Below are positions 48,919 through 57,954 of a stretch of DNA of 64,000 nt, piece by piece; positions within the stretch are counted from its first letter, which is position 1, and every line of letters begins with the position of its first letter. The DNA is taken from sequence record PZ338878.1; one strand, given 5' to 3'. The notes beneath the pieces are model-generated. The model had not been told where the DNA came from. It ran no database searches and saw only the letters and a list, made by a program, of their open reading frames with translations. Made by a program: the position numbers and the translations under genes. The DNA is from a phage.

Positions 48919-50079
48919 TTAGTAAGAACGACCACCAAACACATACTCTGTGTAGTTTTTACGTTCTTTGTTTTTAATAACAACTTCAATGTTGTTACCT
49001 TTATCATCGGTGAACATAAAGTGATAACCGTCACCACCCATTGTACGAATGTGTTTTTCATCATACGTTAGCAAGATACGGTCTACACCCCAGTAGTAGT
49101 CACCTTCTTCATCTTTATCTTCTACGGTAACAATCCCTTCCATTTCAGGAAGATGCTCTTCTCCTGACTTATGATCTACAGCTACAACATAACGATTACC
49201 GCTAAACAAACCTTGTGCTGTCATACCGTCAATATCGGTATCTGACGAAACATCTGCTGTACGATCTACACCATTAACTTTCAGAAGTTTAACTTCTTTT
49301 GCAGCATAGCGGTGTTCAGTAATACTGATACCCATTAATGCAAGTGCATCAGAGAATTTGTCATTAGGATAACGGTTAAGTTCTTCTACTAATGATTGAA
49401 CAATATCAAAGTTCAAATCCACGGAGAGATTATAAAGCGTTTCAAAATCTGGTAAGAAGGCTTTGTTCTCCAGATTTTTAGCCAGATAATCATCCATAGT
49501 AGCTTTAGGTAGTTTCTTATAGCTAAAACTGTAGAAAATACGGCTAGGACGATTACGCAAAAATTCTGATACATAACCATCATTTTTAGTCAATACAAAC
49601 AGCTTGTCATAACCACCAACACCATCCAGCAGGGTAAGCAAACCATCTTGTGCATCTTTTTCAGCATACAGTTTATCAAATTCATCGATCATAATCATCA
49701 CAGGTTGTGTGATTTTAGACATAAAGTTGATAAAGCCTTCACCATTAAAAGCACTACCGATAGAAATAGTAGGAATACCCATTTCACGAAGAGCAGAAGA
49801 CAGCATTTTAGCTTGCAAAGTTTTACCGCTACCTTTCGTACCCTCAAGGAGAACACCTGTGTTTTTACCTTTGCGGCTAAGGAACGTCTTGATAATACGT
49901 TCTGATTTATCATCAGTATCACCGTATGTTACTGAAGGTACTTCCATATCATTTTTAGGATACAGGAAGAACTCACCACTTTGAGTAACACCTACACCAA
50001 AAGTTCCTGCTGGAATTTCTTCAATATCTGTACCAGACTTCTGACGCAGGAAGATTTGATTGCCGAATACTGTAAACAT
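48919..50079 (-). CDS. P-loop NTPase, AAA-like ATPase
   Basis: Walker A GVLLEGTKGSGKT, Walker B VMIMIDEFD, sensor-1-like FVLTKND, Arg-rich RNRPSR; extra N- and C-terminal regions. Confidence 0.6.
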   Translation of the reverse strand: MFTVFGNQIFLRQKSGTDIEEIPAGTFGVGVTQSGEFFLYPKNDMEVPSVTYGDTDDKSERIIKTFLSRKGKNTGVLLEGTKGSGKTLQAKMLSSALREMGIPTISIGSAFNGEGFINFMSKITQPVMIMIDEFDKLYAEKDAQDGLLTLLDGVGGYDKLFVLTKNDGYVSEFLRNRPSRIFYSFSYKKLPKATMDDYLAKNLENKAFLPDFETLYNLSVDLNFDIVQSLVEELNRYPNDKFSDALALMGISITEHRYAAKEVKLLKVNGVDRTADVSSDTDIDGMTAQGLFSGNRYVVAVDHKSGEEHLPEMEGIVTVEDKDEEGDYYWGVDRILLTYDEKHIRTMGGDGYHFMFTDDKGNNIEVVIKNKERKNYTEYVFGGRSY

Positions 50080-50099: not shown

Positions 50100-50570
50100 T
50101 TAGTCAGATTCCCAAATGTTGTCTTTCTTAACCCACATTCGTTGATTATCTGAACCTCTATAACGTTTCGTTGTTGGTTGATTCATATCATACTTACCAT
50201 CTATCACTATGTCAACCAGTTTTTTAATTTTTTCTGGAATTTCTTCAAAAAGATATCCTGTATATAAGACAATATCTTTTTTGTTTCCAAAACAATCTCT
50301 TACCTTCTCAAGAACATACTCTACAGTGTCAATGTTCTCTTTGTCAAGAGGTTCACCACCTAAAACTGTTAATCCTTTAATGAAAGGTCGAGATAAATCT
50401 TCCAAGATAAGATCTAATGTTTCAACAGTGAACTCTTGTCCGTAATTATACGACCAGGCTTTCTGGTTAAAGCAGCCACGGCAACCGTGGCTACAACCGC
50501 TCACCCACAAAGAGCATCTTACACCGTCACCGTTGAGCATGTCAACAGGTTCATATCCGGCGTAATTCAA
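50100..50570 (-). CDS. nrdG: anaerobic ribonucleotide reductase activating protein
   Basis: Radical-SAM cysteine cluster CSLWVSGCSHGCRGCFN; overlaps nrdD stop. Confidence 0.8.
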   Translation of the reverse strand: MNYAGYEPVDMLNGDGVRCSLWVSGCSHGCRGCFNQKAWSYNYGQEFTVETLDLILEDLSRPFIKGLTVLGGEPLDKENIDTVEYVLEKVRDCFGNKKDIVLYTGYLFEEIPEKIKKLVDIVIDGKYDMNQPTTKRYRGSDNQRMWVKKDNIWESD

Positions 50571-52366
50571 AAATGTTTCTCCCTTTCTAGTACCTCTTGC
50601 ATTTTACCTTTGTTATAAGGGCGAGAGTTAGGGGCAGAAAGGTATCCTGACACTCTTCTGATCACAGATATGGATTCTTCTTCATGATTACCGCAACTTG
50701 GACACTCGAAGCCTTTAGCCGTTGCTTTAAATTCACCATGAAAACCACATTTGAAACACTGATCTACAGGTTGGTTCACGCCAAAATAAGGAATTTTATT
50801 GTAGGCATAATCTACAAGAGTTTCCAGTGCTTGCAAGTTATTTTTAAGGTTTGGTGTTTCTACATAACCTATGTTCCCACCATTACTAATTTGTGCAAAA
50901 CCTTCCTCATAATCCCATTTTTGGAACGGGGTAGTGTGCATCCATACAGGTTGATGGAAAGAGTTTGTCAAGTAGTCACGATCAATAGAACCAGGATAGC
51001 GATCATTTAATGCTTTGGCAAATTTATAGCACAAGGATTCTGCTGGTGTTCCATACAAACTAAAAGCTAAACCAGAACGTTCTTTAAATGTGCAACAGAT
51101 ATCCTTCATATATTGAAGGATGTTTTTACCCATTGCTTTTGGATTGGTGTTATTTGGGTATAAAATCTCCATAGCTTCTGCTAAACCTACATAACCGATA
51201 CTAATAGAGGCATAGCCACCTTCAAATAGTTTACCAATCTCTTCATTAGCTTCTAATCGAGCTAAAGCCCCTTCCATAAACAATGTAGGGTTTTGAGATG
51301 CTTTGGTATGTCTAATACGGTTAACACGTAGCATATGTGCCTTATACGCCATCTCCATATGTTGTTCCAACAGTTCAGTAAATAAGATGCCCTTTTCACG
51401 GGACTCTGCTGCAATGATAGGTAAGTTTAAAGAAACTACGCCTAAGTTGAAACGACCATCATATTTTTCACCTTGCTCTGTTGCATAGTATGACAAGAAA
51501 CTACGGCAACCCATGCTTGTGACGCGACCATCTGAAGATCCTGTAACTTCTTTGTTTAAAGGTACAGAGATAAAATCAGGATAAATGCGTTCAGCACAAC
51601 ACTCCATTGCCAGTTGCTTCAAATCATAGTTTGGATCACCAGCTTTCATGTTAACACCATCTTCCAAGAAGAAGATAACTTTAGGAAACACAGGAGTTAC
51701 CCTATCTTTTCCTAATCCTTGTTTGTGCACCATTAGGTAGTTTTTAGTGATCATTCTACCAAAAGCAGAGGTATCCAAACCTAAACTAATTGTTATAAAA
51801 GGTGACTGACCATTTACACTCATTAGGGTGTTCACCTGGTAGATTAAAGTTTGCATTGCATCATAGACCTGTTTATCTACCATACGCATAGCAATATCAT
51901 AATCGCCAACATCGGCATATATTTTATTAAAACTTGCTTTAACGTATTGACTAAGCCCAGTATCAATATGTGCACAAGTTTGTCCACCATATTGGCTAGA
52001 AGCTACTGCTTGAATAATTTGAGTTAGAACAGTAGTTGCTACACCGATAGATTTTGGTTTTTCAATATGTGCATTACCAATACGGAAACCGTTCTCAAGC
52101 ATATCTTGGTAATTTACCAGGCAACAATTAGTTAAAGGTGAGAGTAAATAATCTAAATCGTGAATGTGACCATACCCGCTTTTATGCCATTCTGCTAGAT
52201 CTTCCGGTAAAATATGGGTCATTGCCATGTGCTTGCTCAGGATACCTGCTAGTAAGTCTCGGTGAGTATTAACAATCATTGCAGGTTTGTTTGCATTTTC
52301 ACGAGTAAATTCTTCGGATGTTTGTTCGAGGAATCCGATTACATCCTCATATAGTTTTTGGGTCAT
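50567..52366 (-). CDS. nrdD: anaerobic ribonucleoside-triphosphate reductase
   Basis: ORF-track 50567-52396, start at ATG 52366 after GGAGG; C-terminal Zn ribbon CFKCGF...CPSCGN and glycyl-radical-type RVSGYL. Confidence 0.85.
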   Translation of the reverse strand: MTQKLYEDVIGFLEQTSEEFTRENANKPAMIVNTHRDLLAGILSKHMAMTHILPEDLAEWHKSGYGHIHDLDYLLSPLTNCCLVNYQDMLENGFRIGNAHIEKPKSIGVATTVLTQIIQAVASSQYGGQTCAHIDTGLSQYVKASFNKIYADVGDYDIAMRMVDKQVYDAMQTLIYQVNTLMSVNGQSPFITISLGLDTSAFGRMITKNYLMVHKQGLGKDRVTPVFPKVIFFLEDGVNMKAGDPNYDLKQLAMECCAERIYPDFISVPLNKEVTGSSDGRVTSMGCRSFLSYYATEQGEKYDGRFNLGVVSLNLPIIAAESREKGILFTELLEQHMEMAYKAHMLRVNRIRHTKASQNPTLFMEGALARLEANEEIGKLFEGGYASISIGYVGLAEAMEILYPNNTNPKAMGKNILQYMKDICCTFKERSGLAFSLYGTPAESLCYKFAKALNDRYPGSIDRDYLTNSFHQPVWMHTTPFQKWDYEEGFAQISNGGNIGYVETPNLKNNLQALETLVDYAYNKIPYFGVNQPVDQCFKCGFHGEFKATAKGFECPSCGNHEEESISVIRRVSGYLSAPNSRPYNKGKMQEVLEREKHF

Positions 52367-52379
52367 TAATCCTCCGTGG

Positions 52380-52410
52380 AAAATAAAAGCCAGCATTAAG
52401 CTGGCTTTAG
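52380..52410 (-). terminator. terminator-like hairpin upstream of nrdD
   Basis: GCCAGC-ATTAA-GCTGGC stem-loop with flanking A/T tracts, between the 52456 gene and nrdD. Confidence 0.5.
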
Positions 52411-52455
52411 GGTGGATCTTTATTTTAAATCTTTTTCGTAAGATTGTCCTTGATC

Positions 52456-53406
52456 TTAGTCAAGGTTTTTGGTAATACGTGTACAACCATCAGAAGTCAA
52501 ACCGTCAACTTGAGTTTCCCAAGTACCATGAATATTTCGGAACAATGTTGTTACACCTTTTGGTTCATTAATAATGATTGCCATAACAAGTTTAGGATCG
52601 ATAACAGACATAATCTTTTCCTCAATACCCTCTGTAATAACATTATTGCGCACAATATTAATTGCATCTTCTTGTACAGTAAGAACACTTACGTTCTTAA
52701 GAGTATATACCTGCTGTGTAGTGTAAATGATACGAACATAACTTACAGAACGAGTAGGCACAGGTTTACGCGGTCGGCGAAAACGTGGTTTTGGTGAAGA
52801 TTCAGTTTTACTTTCATCTTTTGAATAATACTCCTCAAACAGTTTAGTAAATGTTTTTACATCAACTACAAACCGATCTTTCCGATATGGAGAATTCTTA
52901 TGTGCACCATTAATACCACTGTTTTCATCGAAGAAAGTAATGTTTTCTTCAGTTGAATACATTAGATAATGATCTGCATTTTTCCAATGTGGTTGTGGAC
53001 AACGAGGATTACAAACTGAAAGCAGATAACTAATATCTTCTTCCGTGGCATCAGTATCCAGGAAACACGTATTATGCACAGTCAGTTGTACTTTTTCAGC
53101 CATATCTTTTTCTTTATCCTCATTAGCAAGATATTCAGTACGAATAATTTCCAGAAAACCTTCAGGTGTTACTTCCATAAATGTATATTCAGGATGAAGT
53201 TCCATATATTCAAATCCACAACCATCTAACTGCTGTAGAAAGTTAGGGTAGAAGAACAAATCATTAACACTGTGAATCAGATCATTGATTTCTGCTTCAG
53301 TTGTGTAGCCAAAACTCTTGTGAATTGCTTCGTTAAGAATATGCAGGATACCCATCTCTTCTGCTGCTTTTTTAACTTCCAGTTTATTAGCGTAAAATGC
53401 AATCAT
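52456..53406 (-). CDS. hypothetical protein
   Basis: 316 aa; basic patch PKPRFRRPRKPVPTR. Confidence 0.5.
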   Translation of the reverse strand: MIAFYANKLEVKKAAEEMGILHILNEAIHKSFGYTTEAEINDLIHSVNDLFFYPNFLQQLDGCGFEYMELHPEYTFMEVTPEGFLEIIRTEYLANEDKEKDMAEKVQLTVHNTCFLDTDATEEDISYLLSVCNPRCPQPHWKNADHYLMYSTEENITFFDENSGINGAHKNSPYRKDRFVVDVKTFTKLFEEYYSKDESKTESSPKPRFRRPRKPVPTRSVSYVRIIYTTQQVYTLKNVSVLTVQEDAINIVRNNVITEGIEEKIMSVIDPKLVMAIIINEPKGVTTLFRNIHGTWETQVDGLTSDGCTRITKNLD

Positions 53407-53423
53407 TATGTTCTCCTTCTAAA

Positions 53424-53858
53424 TTAGTTTAAAATTTCTTTTGCAATGGTAGAAGCAAGTTTTCCATCATATTGATTCGGATACTCTGCTTTAAGGTGTT
53501 TCATCATATCTGGCATTTTCTTGCCTGTCAAGGCAAATTCTTCAGCAATAGCTCGAAGATCATCTTCAGATAGCATTTCTGGTAAATATTTTTCCAGAGT
53601 GGTGATATCACGCATAGCTCGCTCACACTTGCTAAGGGAAGCATTAACTTTCTTAAGTGAGTCTAGTTCCTCTTTAGCGTGTGCAATACCAATCTTAACA
53701 ATGTTAATCATAATATCGTCTTCTGATTTGTTTAGATTTGCCTTTTGAGTACGAGCAAGGTCAAACTCACCAATAATATTAGTTAACAAAGCAAAAGCAC
53801 CCTTATCGGTTGTACGTGCTAAGATACGATCTGCTTTCATTTGTGTCACAATAGACAT
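53424..53858 (-). CDS. GatB/YqeY-domain protein
   Basis: 144 aa; LEKYLPEMLSEDDLRAIAEEFALTGKKMPDMMKHLKAEYPNQYDGKLASTIAKEILN closely follows YqeY-type architecture. Confidence 0.65.
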   Translation of the reverse strand: MSIVTQMKADRILARTTDKGAFALLTNIIGEFDLARTQKANLNKSEDDIMINIVKIGIAHAKEELDSLKKVNASLSKCERAMRDITTLEKYLPEMLSEDDLRAIAEEFALTGKKMPDMMKHLKAEYPNQYDGKLASTIAKEILN

Positions 53859-53870
53859 TCTATTCTCCTC

Positions 53871-54443
53871 TTATTTGCTAATGCTTTGAATTTTATTTAC
53901 AACACGGTTTATTGCCAGTGAAGCCCTAGGCTCTGCAATACCTGTTGCATAGATATAAGGATGACCTTTTGGAGACTCCCTCATACCGAATGAACCTAAT
54001 TCTAAACCATATTCATCCTCTACGTCAACCCCAATATTAGTGGGTACTAAATATGTTTTAACTCCATAATAAGTAGAGAAGAAACAGCGCATAGCGTTAG
54101 CATACTCTTCAATTGTAGCATCAGGGTAGAACTCAATCAACTCCAATTTCAAGAAAATATTAAAATGAGTATCATCTAAATTTTCTTCTGTACGGTAACA
54201 TGGTGTTAGTGCCATATACGGATTACCTGCTGCAAATTCAAAACCATCCTTCTCCATTTGCAGGAAAGATTGTTCTGCACTAGCTACATAGTATTTACCG
54301 TTAGGATGCCCTAATGGGCGATCCTCTTTATTTTCTGGTAATGTGTACGCCAGTATATCAGCATCCACGAGATATGGAACTTCTAACATTTGTGCAAATC
54401 GACCATAGTAATCAATAGCTTGAGCTATTACTGCAACATTCAT
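53871..54443 (-). CDS. hypothetical protein, possibly class II aminoacyl-tRNA-synthetase-like core
   Basis: MALTPCYRTEEN...FLKLELIEF weakly resembles class II aaRS motif 2; only 190 aa. Confidence 0.35.
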   Translation of the reverse strand: MNVAVIAQAIDYYGRFAQMLEVPYLVDADILAYTLPENKEDRPLGHPNGKYYVASAEQSFLQMEKDGFEFAAGNPYMALTPCYRTEENLDDTHFNIFLKLELIEFYPDATIEEYANAMRCFFSTYYGVKTYLVPTNIGVDVEDEYGLELGSFGMRESPKGHPYIYATGIAEPRASLAINRVVNKIQSISK

Positions 54444-54691
54444 GATCGACCTCCGCTGCGGAATGCACGTTTAGTAATGTTTGACATAGTGATCAAATCT
54501 TGAAGCGTCATATCAGGAAAATGCTGTTCAAGAACACCTTCAACAGCGCCTACAATATCTGATAACTCAATAAGTTGCATCAGCTTGCAATCTTGATCAA
54601 TAGCATCTTGAAGTTCATAAAGCTCTTCTTGAATCTTAGCAACAGAACCATATTCCTCTTTACTAATCTCCTTCAAATGATACCCTGCCAC
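54440..54691 (-). CDS. MazG-like nucleotide pyrophosphohydrolase (small all-alpha)
   Basis: EELYELQDAI and ELSDIVGAVEGVLEQ resemble MazG/HisE-type motifs. Confidence 0.45.
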   Translation of the reverse strand: MAGYHLKEISKEEYGSVAKIQEELYELQDAIDQDCKLMQLIELSDIVGAVEGVLEQHFPDMTLQDLITMSNITKRAFRSGGRS

Positions 54692-54701
54692 TTTAACCCC
54701 C

Positions 54702-57476
54702 TTAGTTTACCAGTTTATTTATGTCTGGTAAAAGATTTATTTCACCTAAAAAATCACCTTCACCTTCCTCTAGCCAACTCTCATATGCTTGTGCATGATT
54801 ATAGTTACCATCAAAAGAATCTGCAACAAATTTTTCTACAGTTTTTCGAGATGTGCCAGCGCCAAATACACCAAGTTTAATACCATTGATCGGTAAAGTA
54901 GGGCTTGTTGGTACTTTCTCTGTTGCAACACGGTTGATATCTATAATCTCTTGTACAGTTGTATTCCATTGTAAGCATTTAACACAACGGGTATGCGCTA
55001 CATACAGTAAGTTTCGCTCTGCCTCTTCTAGTCCTACCCATTCACCAGTCTTTTTATCATAGTTGGAAGGAAAATCATTAGCAACAATAACCTGATCCCA
55101 CTCCAAACCTTTAGACTTATGTGCTGTAGTCAGTGTGACTTTTGCTGTAGGAGAATTTCTATGCGTTCTAAGTGTATGTGCTATAGTGTTTGCCTTGCCA
55201 GAAACTACGATGTTTAACAAGCGTTTAGCATCTGGATCAGCCTCTGCACACTCAACAAATTCATTCCAGTCTGCGTAAGGTAATACAGTTTCATGTTTTA
55301 CTTTCTCAATATCCCCTCTCCGAAGAGCATTAACACTATCCACCATAGAGATAAAATCCCTGGTATCTACGTTAATAATAATTTCTTCCCCATCTGCAAT
55401 ACGATCCATTGCCTCCATAAGCAAGGTTAAATTCTTGCGAAAGATGATAGTGTAAGGTTTTGTATAGTCTACAACATCTGATTTGTAGCTACCTACTACA
55501 GTATCAAAGCCTTTACCAACCAAAGGATGACGCAAAGGTTCTTTATCACTTAAAATCATATTCGCAATGTTTGCCACTTTGGGGCCAAAACGGAAGCAAG
55601 CAGTTAATGGAAGCTCTGCCCCATACTTAGCTGTTTCAATCATCATATTAGAGCTACCTCTAAATTGATAAATGCAGTTGTGGCTAAGAATTTCATTGCC
55701 AAAAAAGTTAGCAGTATCTTCTACTTCAATATCATAATAGATACCCTCACTATCTACAATGTCCACAATCTCTTCTGCCGTTACAGTATCACCATCTTTT
55801 ACTAACACAGACATGCCTTTAAACAAACCCGCTGCCGGAATTAAATTATATTTGGGAGTGTTCACAGAGGACATGCATTCTTTTAAAGATGCAAACGGAA
55901 CTATTTCAAGGATCTTTTGTGCAAAACTCAATGCTTCACGATAAGAATTGAAATATTTACGTACACGGTAACGACCTTCCAATTTAGCAACACTTACGCT
56001 TACACCTGCTTCAATGAGTGAGGCATAGATTGGCATTTCACTTTCTGTCCACTCAAAGCTAACTTGTGTTCCTTTACAACCTTGTGCTCGCAAAGTCACT
56101 GTTAACATTTTTCTTGCATCTACTGCACAATTGATGCTGTGCCAATGTGGATAAGCAAAATGATAGTCTTTATCCTCTAAAAGTTTAAAACCATTTTGTC
56201 CGAATTGTTCAAAGATATTGTTGATCCTTTCTTGATTAATACCGCGTGAACTTGCTTCAAATACACAAGTAGGAATGCCATATTGTAAACTGTATGCCAT
56301 TTCTTTTTCCATAGCAGCTTCACGGTTTTCAACAATATCCAACACCCACAACTTCTGTGCTTTTTCAGAACGTGTACGTTGCCCCAGTTTAGAAAAACCT
56401 TCTTTATCATCGAATTTGTTAGTGATCCCTACTCGGAAACCTAAATCTTTTCTCCACATTAGGTATACCACCATCTGATCATCTTTCAGAACATAAGGTG
56501 AAGCCCAAATACGATGGTTATGTGTCATATCTAAAGTCTTACCTTTAGCAGTAATAATATTCCTACCTTTTGTACGTGTAGATAAAGTCTTATTTGTTAC
56601 TTTTCTAAATGTAACTTTACCGTTAGAATAAGACTCTACCTTATCACCGATTTGCAGGTCTTTCATTGTAACCTGACCATTTTCGGTATTAAGTACCGTG
56701 TTTTCTGACACACATTGGAATTCATCACCAACTACCACAATTTGTTTGGCAGATTTAGCATTCCGCAGAATAGACAAGAATGCAGGGTTAACATCCTGGA
56801 ATTCATCCCCAAAAATAATGTCATAACCAAGATCAGCACCAGACAATTCAAACAATTTTACATAGGTGTCATGCGTCATCAAAGTATCTGTGTTAGGATC
56901 AATGCGCTCTCGCCACAATTGTTTTGCATACTTAACTACTTCTGTAATTAGTTTGTGTTCGTTAATACCTTTTCTTTTAATATCTGCAAGATGTACACCA
57001 GGAAAATGTTTACGGCTGATAAAAGGATCATCCGAAAATTCAAACTTACCTACGGTTTGCTTGATCATTAAACCAATCATAGCACGAGTTAAAAGTGTTT
57101 TCCCTCGTTTATCAATAAGATTATTAATCTTAAATTTCTTTGCTATCTCACTACCTGTACCTGCAACGTTAACATACTGTCCTTCTGGTCGTGACAGTTT
57201 TGCACGTAAACGATGATCCAGGAATTGATAGCAAATGGAATGCAATGTACGGCATTCTACATTTGGTGGCATCTTACGCCGTGCTTCTTCTGCCATGCTT
57301 TTATTGAAAGCTAAGTAAAGAATGCGATCTTCTGTACTGTTAGCCAGCAAATAAAGTGTTGACGTTTTTCCTGATCCAGATTTAGCTTGGATAGTTAAAA
57401 ACCGATGATCTGGAAAAGCCTCCTTAATAGCTGTTTGCTCTTCTGTTGGAGTAAAACTCAACTCTTTCTTAGCCAT
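54702..57476 (-). CDS. UvrD/Rep-like superfamily I DNA helicase containing an intein
   Basis: ORF-track 54702-57515, start at ATG 57476; Walker A AKSGSGKTST, motif II GDEFQD, motif III split by insertion (VVVGDEFQ | intein | CIYQFRGSS). Confidence 0.75.
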   Translation of the reverse strand: MAKKELSFTPTEEQTAIKEAFPDHRFLTIQAKSGSGKTSTLYLLANSTEDRILYLAFNKSMAEEARRKMPPNVECRTLHSICYQFLDHRLRAKLSRPEGQYVNVAGTGSEIAKKFKINNLIDKRGKTLLTRAMIGLMIKQTVGKFEFSDDPFISRKHFPGVHLADIKRKGINEHKLITEVVKYAKQLWRERIDPNTDTLMTHDTYVKLFELSGADLGYDIIFGDEFQDVNPAFLSILRNAKSAKQIVVVGDEFQCVSENTVLNTENGQVTMKDLQIGDKVESYSNGKVTFRKVTNKTLSTRTKGRNIITAKGKTLDMTHNHRIWASPYVLKDDQMVVYLMWRKDLGFRVGITNKFDDKEGFSKLGQRTRSEKAQKLWVLDIVENREAAMEKEMAYSLQYGIPTCVFEASSRGINQERINNIFEQFGQNGFKLLEDKDYHFAYPHWHSINCAVDARKMLTVTLRAQGCKGTQVSFEWTESEMPIYASLIEAGVSVSVAKLEGRYRVRKYFNSYREALSFAQKILEIVPFASLKECMSSVNTPKYNLIPAAGLFKGMSVLVKDGDTVTAEEIVDIVDSEGIYYDIEVEDTANFFGNEILSHNCIYQFRGSSNMMIETAKYGAELPLTACFRFGPKVANIANMILSDKEPLRHPLVGKGFDTVVGSYKSDVVDYTKPYTIIFRKNLTLLMEAMDRIADGEEIIINVDTRDFISMVDSVNALRRGDIEKVKHETVLPYADWNEFVECAEADPDAKRLLNIVVSGKANTIAHTLRTHRNSPTAKVTLTTAHKSKGLEWDQVIVANDFPSNYDKKTGEWVGLEEAERNLLYVAHTRCVKCLQWNTTVQEIIDINRVATEKVPTSPTLPINGIKLGVFGAGTSRKTVEKFVADSFDGNYNHAQAYESWLEEGEGDFLGEINLLPDINKLVN
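55677..56714 (-). mobile_element. intein (about 346 aa) inserted in helicase motif III
   Basis: Begins with Cys after DEFQ (CVSENTVLNTENGQVTMKDLQIGDKV), ends ...FGNEILSHN followed by +1 Cys; codons checked at both junctions. Confidence 0.65.
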
Positions 57477-57477
57477 T

Positions 57478-57954
57478 TCAACCTCTCTTAATTTGTTTAA
57501 CAAGCATAGGAACAAAATCTCGTTTTAAAATTTGTTCAATAATATGATCAGGTAGCTGTTGGAAATTATAATTAAATGCTACTGTCTCACCTTTAGGTGT
57601 TTCTACCCGCACATATAGCATGTTACGAAGTTTATCCACTTGTGCTGTATATTCTAAACCACGTAATTGATGCATTGCAAACATCAAATCATCAGTTTCA
57701 GTTTGGAATCTATCCCTTGTTTGCATCAAGGATAAGGCAAAAGGTAGATTTTCCCTAAGAGCCACCTTCTTAGGCACTAATGAAGGGAAATACTCCCCAA
57801 TAACTTCCTGTGTAAGCTGAATACACTCTTTTTCAAGCTGGTTTTGTTCCTTGAGTTCACAAACACTTTTTTGTAAAGTGTTAACCTCTTTTTGCAAAGC
57901 TGCTAGTTGAGTATTTAACTTTCTTTTTTGATTACGACCAAAACGTTTAGACAT
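57478..57954 (-). CDS. hypothetical coiled-coil protein
   Basis: 158 aa; basic N-terminus and coiled coil. Confidence 0.45.
   Translation of the reverse strand: MSKRFGRNQKRKLNTQLAALQKEVNTLQKSVCELKEQNQLEKECIQLTQEVIGEYFPSLVPKKVALRENLPFALSLMQTRDRFQTETDDLMFAMHQLRGLEYTAQVDKLRNMLYVRVETPKGETVAFNYNFQQLPDHIIEQILKRDFVPMLVKQIKRG

Follow-up and report, generated by a model that had tools for sequence, protein, structure and literature searches.

The segment between positions 53424 and 54691 of a 64,000-nucleotide stretch of phage DNA (record PZ338878.1; the whole stretch is called the window here) raises the question of which of its genes belong together, and whether their products act on tRNA or on nucleotides. 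An initial annotation had read the segment as a YqeY-domain protein flanked by a possible fragment of a class II aminoacyl-tRNA synthetase (aaRS) core and by a MazG-like pyrophosphohydrolase. In the ORF list of the window, the segment consists of exactly three ORFs, all on the minus strand (144, 190, and 83 aa), and these belong to a gene string that opens with an intein-containing UvrD helicase, continues with the 83-aa, 190-aa, and 144-aa genes, and ends in a 316-aa ORF. The features are as follows:

54440 to 54691, minus strand: gene for the 83-aa MazG/HisE-type, all-alpha NTP pyrophosphohydrolase-like subunit; GTG start; equivalent of phi92 gp197
54440 to 54454, minus strand: translational-coupling junction between the 83-aa and 190-aa genes, read directly from the sequence
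53871 to 54443, minus strand: gene for the 190-aa minimal class II catalytic core of seryl-tRNA synthetase (SerRS) type; equivalent of phi92 gp196
53424 to 53858, minus strand: gene for the 144-aa free-standing YqeY (GatB C-terminal-like) protein, identified by Pfam and phrog_1460; equivalent of phi92 gp195
52386 to 52408, minus strand: intrinsic-terminator-like hairpin closing the string of helicase, 83-aa, 190-aa, YqeY, and 316-aa genes; 9-bp stem with 5 G-C pairs and a T-rich tail

The three ORFs represent real genes and not chance reading frames, since all of them have full-length PHROG matches (E-values of 4e-71 for the 190-aa, 9e-43 for the 83-aa, and 2e-36 for the 144-aa protein) and are maintained at 97–99% across more than 50 database genomes of phi92-like phages; the region is 97–99% identical to phi92-like Escherichia coli myoviruses of the genus Justusliebigvirus, with vB_vPM_PD114 as the best match. 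Their junctions are packed as in an operon. A Shine-Dalgarno-like GGGGG run (54697–54701) precedes the GTG start of the 83-aa gene; the TGA stop of this gene (54442–54440) overlaps the ATG of the 190-aa gene (54443–54441) in an ATGA, and a GGAGG at 54454–54450, within the final codons of the 83-aa gene, lies 6 nt upstream of the 190-aa start. The 190-aa and YqeY genes are separated by 12 nt, and the latter has its own GGAG; a further 17 nt separate it from the 316-aa ORF. The hairpin at 52408–52386 is the sole strong terminator candidate on the minus strand within 52300–57700, and sits just before nrdD/nrdG.

The YqeY assignment stands: the 144-aa protein matches the Pfam YqeY model (PF09424) with 30.4 bits (cut-off 27), its residues 38–143 covering model positions 34–143 of 143. 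Pfam gave a significant match for YqeY only and NCBIfam gave none for GatB, so that the catalytic GatB domain is absent. The protein can thus not be counted as a GatB amidotransferase, and the names given in deposited records (“tRNA amidotransferase” and “aspartyl/glutamyl-tRNA synthetase”) are overstated. As to the YqeY-centered three-gene module that had been suggested, the genes are indeed adjacent, but YqeY turns out to be the lineage-specific member. It adjoins the other two genes only in loci L005, L006, and L007, which represent the phi92-like lineage and one deeply diverged contig (L005), and it is missing from most genomes that carry the pair. Among 50,697 deposited phage genomes YqeY occurs in 118, with a host spectrum (44 Vibrio, 7 Sinorhizobium, 46 Escherichia) that differs from that of the pair (112 Escherichia). 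YqeY is thus a dispensable accessory neighbor, an optional add-on in phi92-like phages; its only tested function, that of a tRNA-affinity enhancer, worked solely in cis and in one system (PMC1865053).

The conserved and evolutionarily locked unit is the pair of MazG-like protein and mini-SerRS, as indicated by linkage, by fusions, by matching genome counts and host spectra, and by the rarity of an adjacent YqeY gene. Distant homologs of the 190-aa protein were collected from long contigs and from 64 IMG/VR loci, yielding 68 loci, or 57 after dereplication; an 83-aa homolog was found in the flank of the 190-aa gene in 65 of the 68, and in 54 of the 57 dereplicated viral loci. The partner gene lies directly upstream of the mini-aaRS gene in 37 of these 57 loci, abutting or overlapping as in the window; it is found upstream within 1 kb in 10 loci, farther upstream in one, and directly downstream in three. 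Three loci encode a fusion (aaRS N-terminal, MazG-like C-terminal, no linker), and the remaining three lack the partner in the flank. When 185,579 species genomes were scanned as an independent collection, no more than 15 loci turned up, and MAG contigs accounted for nearly all of them; where the mini-aaRS ORF was intact (14 loci), the partner was adjacent or fused in 12, including three fusions. An exhaustive HMMER search of 1.84 billion proteins returned 1,592 clusters of the 190-aa family at 50% identity (1,064 of them at E ≤1e-30), and fusions with 0–4 linker residues occurred in 9 of the best 140 cluster representatives; in all, the two proteins form a single chain in about 5–6% of lineages, one example being the 266-aa protein of MaMV-DH01. 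The two proteins are present in 273 and 263 of the 50,697 deposited phage genomes, about 0.5%, with nearly identical host spectra that include Proteobacteria, Cyanobacteria, and Bacillus.

The 190-aa protein clearly belongs to the class II superfamily. It has the antiparallel beta-sheet core and the three class II motifs, namely motif 1 (a helix-strand in which a proline is invariant), motif 2 (f-R-x-E...F), and motif 3 (G-x-G-x-G/A-x-x-R), and its alignment with E. coli SerRS matches S55/E57 to T237/E239, R84/E86 to R268/E270, F97 to F287, K99 to K289, E101 to E291, E148/S151 to E355/S358, T167 to S391, and R173 to R397. We take the SerRS residues in question to be the arginines that contact the ATP phosphates, the phenylalanine that stacks on the adenine, the Mg ligands, and the contacts to the amino and hydroxyl groups of serine, as in the SerRS-adenylate structures of Thermus thermophilus. 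Eleven positions (S55, E57, R84, F97, K99, E101, D140, E148, S151, T167, and R173) are invariant in 177 diverse family members, and the residues specific to the serine site of SerRS are present as S-x-E (T-x-E in SerRS), Glu101, and Thr167. The predicted site for ATP, Mg, and serine is complete, and the core very probably still makes seryl-adenylate. Since the invariant residues map onto functional positions of SerRS, the protein is a complete, highly conserved minimal catalytic domain, 175–200 aa long throughout the family; the class II assignment proposed at the outset is borne out, but not the term “fragment.” The SerRS relationship emerges only from family profile and structure, not from single-sequence searches: with the 190-aa protein as query, no Pfam aaRS model reached its cut-off (the best, tRNA-synt_2d, scored 12.1 against 19.8 bits), NCBIfam gave no match, and phmmer against the PDB found just a chance match to FGF. 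A PADLOC search was without match, and Pfam scans of longer variants of both subunits returned no domains. The PHROG and RefSeq label of histidyl-tRNA synthetase (HisRS) was rejected, as the HisRS-specific core with its C-terminal anticodon-binding domain, by the measure of Pfam tRNA-synt_His, is lacking.

The 83-aa protein carries the invariant residues E22-E23-x2-E26-x2-D29 and E42-x2-D45 in all 23 family members compared, and E23-x2-E26 and E42-x2-D45 align with the HisE motif of the PDB match 2a7w. ExxE...ExxD is the metal signature of the all-alpha NTP pyrophosphohydrolases, reportedly defined as E-x2-E...E-x2-D by Moroz and colleagues in 2005. Taken alone, the protein scores below threshold with Pfam PRA-PH (15 bits against a gathering score of 21.3), and its own PHROG family, phrog_6408, is labeled as of unknown function; among the 23 members, 16 match PRA-PH at E ≤1 (best 5.4e-4) and four match MazG, and no other Pfam family recurs. 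The predicted structure consists of three helices (pLDDT 89.7) in the helical fold of MazG and HisE; Foldseek ranks HisE (probability 0.80) and two chains of MazG as its top three matches, all within noisy searches that returned no E-value below 1, as expected for a small helical protein. Metal signature, fold matches, and the PRA-PH and MazG hits of family members together support a MazG/HisE-type assignment at the superfamily level, in agreement with the “MazG-like” protein of the initial annotation; an activity as NTP pyrophosphohydrolase is putative.

The gene neighborhoods of the pair are heterogeneous, with a flavor of nucleotide and DNA metabolism and another of RNA repair and translation. 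Flanking-ORF clustering and Pfam scans revealed no third conserved gene, as no family occurred in more than 3 of 221 nearest neighbors; one cluster of flanking ORFs from 15 loci was rejected since it consists of antisense shadow ORFs. Genes of nucleotide metabolism accompany the pair in several phages that are unrelated to one another. NrdD/NrdG and UvrD are found near the pair in the window; in the Citromicrobium phage RXM the order is dNMP kinase, ThyX, two MazG genes, mini-aaRS, and then RNR; the mini-aaRS of the T4-like Acinetobacter phage Lazarus lies within the nrdC region, and a primase is found near the pair of a Microcystis phage. On the RNA side, the neighbors include RlaP, which repairs tRNA 3′ ends (PMC12776372), in 8 of 57 loci, the CCA-adding enzyme in 4 of 57, PTH2 and RNA ligase twice each, HisRS once, and a TyrRS/TrpRS-type gene in one locus (L004).

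Which kind of substrate the pair would act on is constrained by what the mini-core has lost. The 190-aa protein begins at motif 1, corresponding to approximately residue 170 of E. coli SerRS, and lacks the N-terminal coiled-coil arm, which is the tRNA(Ser)-recognition element of SerRS (PMC10817482). Its motif 2 loop comprises 10–12 residues across the family, compared to 18 in SerRS, with a median net charge of −3 (E. coli and Aquifex enzymes: +1 or +2); the place of SerRS Arg283 is taken by His93. The isoelectric points of the two subunits do not discriminate in this regard, since E. coli SerRS is just as acidic. The absence of the tRNA-binding elements and the acidity of the motif 2 loop speak against tRNA charging of the ordinary kind.

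The reading that we tentatively prefer, while granting it somewhat less than an even chance, is that of a nucleotide-directed two-subunit enzyme in which a tRNA-independent seryl-adenylate chemistry would be coupled to nucleotide chemistry. The 190-aa subunit A, which keeps the dimer element of motif 1, would bind ATP-Mg and serine and form seryl-adenylate, given that the arginines of motifs 2 and 3, the phenylalanine, the metal ligands, and the serine residues are retained; with the coiled-coil arm lost, along with the long and basic loop of motif 2, the acceptor of the seryl (or adenylyl) group would not be tRNA(Ser) in the canonical way. The 83-aa subunit B, with its complete ExxE...ExxD metal site, may bind or cleave a ligand that resembles a nucleoside triphosphate. 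Translational coupling, co-inheritance, and repeated fusion without linker suggest, on genomic grounds only, that A and B most likely form one complex, with sites that act on the same or on successive nucleotide substrates. By analogy to the relay from MazZ to PurZ in other phages, B could hold or produce a nucleotide to which A applies its Ser-AMP chemistry; the product might, speculatively, be an aminoacyl- or adenylyl-nucleotide, such as a seryl-nucleotide or a compound of Ap4N type, formed at an early stage of infection together with the products of nucleotide-metabolism genes. SerRS itself is said to make Ap4A from the adenylate, a result that goes back to Belrhali and colleagues in 1995. 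Several points weigh against a nucleotide-directed enzyme: the RNA-repair and translation neighbors would fit a tRNA-directed role equally well, a sensor could likewise explain why the binding residues are conserved, and the Pfam and Foldseek scores of subunit B are each below threshold. We also know of no seryl-nucleotide or DNA modification in the well-studied carriers of the pair (phi92-like, rV5-like, and T4-like Acinetobacter phages). The stronger claim, a new kind of enzyme in which a class II core of ~180 aa and a HisE/MazG subunit transfer seryl or adenylyl groups onto a nucleotide independently of tRNA, is doubtful on present evidence; if true, large phages, together with some viruses that were binned with archaeal or giant-virus MAGs, would use a new aminoacyl-nucleotide or dinucleoside-polyphosphate metabolite during infection.

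The alternative that survives best, if still rather unlikely, is a minimal split aaRS. The 190-aa core would serylate a tRNA, be it the tRNA(Ser) of host or phage or one that is atypical or has been repaired; the 83-aa partner, joined by YqeY in phi92-like phages, would supply the missing tRNA handling, and translation would be sustained late in infection or after the action of a tRNA-targeting defense. All serine- and ATP-site residues of SerRS are kept; tRNA and RNA-repair genes are neighbors at some loci, including YqeY in two deeply diverged lineages, and the insect mitochondrial SerRS2alpha/SLIMP offers a precedent for an arm-less SerRS subunit that is complemented in trans (PMC10817482). 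The short, acidic motif 2 loop and the missing arm speak against this alternative, as does the partner, whose site is the acidic metal-binding site of an enzyme and not an RNA-binding surface (median charge of the partner −3.5). The effect of YqeY on tRNA affinity was confined to cis in the one system tested, YqeY is absent from most pair genomes, and no tRNA gene was found in the window.

It is less likely still that the class II core serves as a regulator, in the way that HisZ gates HisG. The MazG/HisE-like (d)NTP pyrophosphohydrolase would then be the real catalyst, in dNTP-pool remodeling or house-cleaning, and the core a non-catalytic or slow sensor of ATP and serine that gates it. According to a review of aaRS paralogs from 2022, HisZ itself is devoid of adenylation activity, whereas no catalytic residue is missing from the phage core; its metal ligands, its adenine-stacking phenylalanine, and the arginines of motifs 2 and 3 are completely invariant among 177 diverged members, which exceeds the needs of a sensor. 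Moreover, the HisZ-HisG and HisE arrangement finds no counterpart in a conserved, linked HisG-like gene among the 221 nearest neighbors.

The initial annotation had raised the possibility that the module counters host translation shutoff or alarmone signaling, which is speculative. As a role against the stringent response, the MazG-like protein would degrade (p)ppGpp, the SerRS-like protein and YqeY would maintain the charging of tRNA(Ser), and RelA activation would be blunted; this appears very improbable. The SerRS-like nature of the core would suit it, as would E. coli MazG (PDB 3cra, “regulator of nutritional stress response”), which ranks with the best structural matches of the 83-aa model; but the closest family of the 83-aa protein is HisE/PRA-PH and not E. 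coli MazG, the mini-core lacks tRNA-binding elements, and two parallel activities would not need tight fusion. Least probable of all, by a small step, is an enzyme similar to the amino acid:carrier protein ligases, whose class II core would serylate the small helical partner as a carrier or flexible tail: the small size and helicity of the 83-aa protein, its “ELSD” motif, and the ligase analogy had brought up this possibility, but the fold matches are to MazG and HisE, with no carrier protein among the top 60, and the candidate Ser44 is not invariant.

Comparison with known systems places the pair outside the SerRS, HisRS, HisZ, and amino acid:carrier protein ligase systems. Relative to the bacterial-type SerRS of 430 aa, the phage core is ~75 residues shorter than positions 165–430 of the E. 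coli enzyme; it has neither arm nor C-terminal extension, its motif 2 loop is shorter by 6–8 residues and acidic, and a MazG-like protein is its obligate partner. The carrier protein ligases Bll0957 and Atu2573 (~300 aa) originate from the zinc-dependent SerRS of methanogens and work with a phosphopantetheinylated carrier protein, whereas the phage core resembles the bacterial type, with 190 aa, and its partner has the fold and motif of MazG/HisE. Catalytic aaRS cores without a tRNA-binding module and with a separately encoded partner are also found in the split PylSn/PylSc system. SerRS2alpha/SLIMP shares this architecture (PMC10817482); there, the separate partner is either a dedicated domain for tRNA binding or a paralog of SerRS, in contrast to the enzyme-like NTP pyrophosphohydrolase with its acidic metal site in the phages.

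The nucleotide-directed reading finds its nearest parallel in the Z-genome phages, where MazZ, an enzyme of MazG-HisE fold, feeds dGMP to the aspartate-ligating PurZ (PMC8342488). There, too, an NTP pyrophosphohydrolase of this fold is genetically linked to an ATP-dependent enzyme within nucleotide-metabolism clusters that include DatZ, and PurZ joins an amino acid to a nucleotide (PMC8342488). PurZ is a homolog of adenylosuccinate synthetase that uses aspartate, whereas the phage core is class II aaRS-like. We know of no fusion of MazZ and PurZ, whereas the mini-aaRS and its MazG-like partner are fused in some lineages. The phages with the mini-aaRS pair differ from the Z-genome phages in another respect, as to our knowledge they do not have modified bases.

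The domain resemblances themselves are not new, since existing records already carry the labels “putative seryl-tRNA synthetase,” “histidyl tRNA synthetase,” “phosphoribosyl-ATP pyrophosphatase,” and “MazG-like.” In the literature, we found no description of the obligate pairing or fusion, or of the family as a minimal SerRS core without tRNA arm; the 2022 review of aaRS paralogs does not describe the pair, and the jumbo-phage survey of Iyer et al. (2021) refers to MazG-like triphosphatases generically only. The joining of an aaRS-like core to a MazG/HisE-type partner is a domain combination that we have not found described; it is abundant, and common among large phages. At the same time, the labels “histidyl tRNA synthetase,” “seryl-tRNA synthetase,” “tRNA amidotransferase,” and “aspartyl/glutamyl-tRNA synthetase” are wrong or overstated for these proteins, and they are being propagated. 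The size of the core deserves attention as well: PylSc, the amino acid:carrier protein ligases, GlyQ, EpmA, and AsnA range from roughly 270 to 330 aa, and among natural class II synthetase-like proteins whose active site is complete we know of none that is smaller; near the size of an “urzyme,” the mini-core offers a natural test case for the minimum protein required for amino-acid activation.

Finally, a cupin-like domain (phrog_4784), weakly related to a family labeled “cysteine dioxygenase,” joins the pair in three loci. In two of them (L036 and L045) it shares a chain with the MazG-like domain, and in the third (L080) it is encoded directly downstream of the mini-aaRS, an association that hints at small-molecule chemistry.

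The pair of a MazG-like protein and a minimal, SerRS-type class II core (mini-aaRS) varies among its homologs in both domain make-up and company. Some lineages, T4-like Acinetobacter phages among them, have a MazG-like partner lengthened at the C-terminus by about 120 aa; these extensions match nothing in Pfam, and similarity between those of different lineages is undetectable. Extended partners are encoded at the following loci:

L004, 4405-5001
L024, 5357-5980
L088, 4978-5613
L071, 5001-5624, Acinetobacter phage Lazarus gp119

A second elaboration involves a cupin-like domain of about 210 aa (phrog_4784) with the motif HDHRY..F..LKG. In two jumbo-phage contigs (L036 and L045) it forms the N-terminal part of a fusion with the MazG-like partner; in a third contig (L080) it is free-standing, and its gene immediately follows that of the mini-aaRS:

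L036, 5070-5765
L045, 4953-5609
L080, 6579-7211

This domain is probably a cupin, given the weak relationship of phrog_4784 to a family that bears the label 'cysteine dioxygenase'; at some loci it may serve as a third component beside the pair. Finally, the two proteins are fused into a single chain in giant-virus bins (the IMG/VR 'GVMAG' contigs L061 and L063) and in metagenome-assembled genomes labelled Nanoarchaeota or archaeon (L079, L083, L086); either the family extends beyond bacteriophages, or phage contigs have been included in these bins.

In the window, the gene directly upstream of the pair encodes a helicase, and a UvrD-like helicase also lies upstream of the pair in 4 of the 57 dereplicated viral loci:

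54702-57515, minus strand, UvrD/Rep-type helicase with intein, 937 aa

In phage JohannJBalmer the annotation of the helicase gene is that of an intein-containing precursor; a near-identical ORF in locus L006 is the probable source of the UvrD and Intein_splicing matches that Pfam gave among the neighbors. The only lineage outside the phi92-like phages with YqeY near the pair is L005 (3743-5549), where the gene order is YqeY, a 184-aa protein, the MazG-like partner, the mini-aaRS, a Macro-domain protein and, last, an R2K ATP-grasp ligase. By eye, the 184-aa protein shows metallophosphoesterase-like motifs (DLHLSH, GDL, GNHD). In phage JohannJBalmer, the following region is annotated a few kb past nrdG:

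L001, 1-2113, macrodomain protein, phosphoribosyltransferase and HAD-like protein

The equivalent region of the window lies downstream of the 48919-50079 ORF; the set bears some resemblance to phage genes for NAD+ reconstitution or ADP-ribose handling.

Two annotations near the downstream end of the gene string look doubtful:

52456-53406, minus strand, co-transcribed 316-aa ORF
50567-52396, nrdD ORF as called mechanically

The 'ribonucleotide reductase' label given to the 316-aa ORF by PHROG 15930 and RefSeq records looks unsupported, as the ORF has no matches in Pfam, NCBIfam or PADLOC; the label may have been transferred from the adjoining nrdD/nrdG. The terminator hairpin at the end of the upstream gene string (hairpin at 52386-52408) overlaps the nrdD start called mechanically at 52396; an internal methionine (MTQKLYED...) about 30 nt downstream is probably the true start.

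GenBank records MG065639.1 and MG065689.1 (matches H28, H112 and H113) share about 99% protein identity with these E. coli phi92-like genes and are named 'Campylobacter phage A150/A110a'; their stated host, Campylobacter jejuni, looks doubtful. No tRNA genes were found in the 64-kb window. Its cumulative GC skew (1-64000) rises to about 26 kb and declines steadily thereafter, a shape consistent with two gene blocks transcribed in opposite directions.
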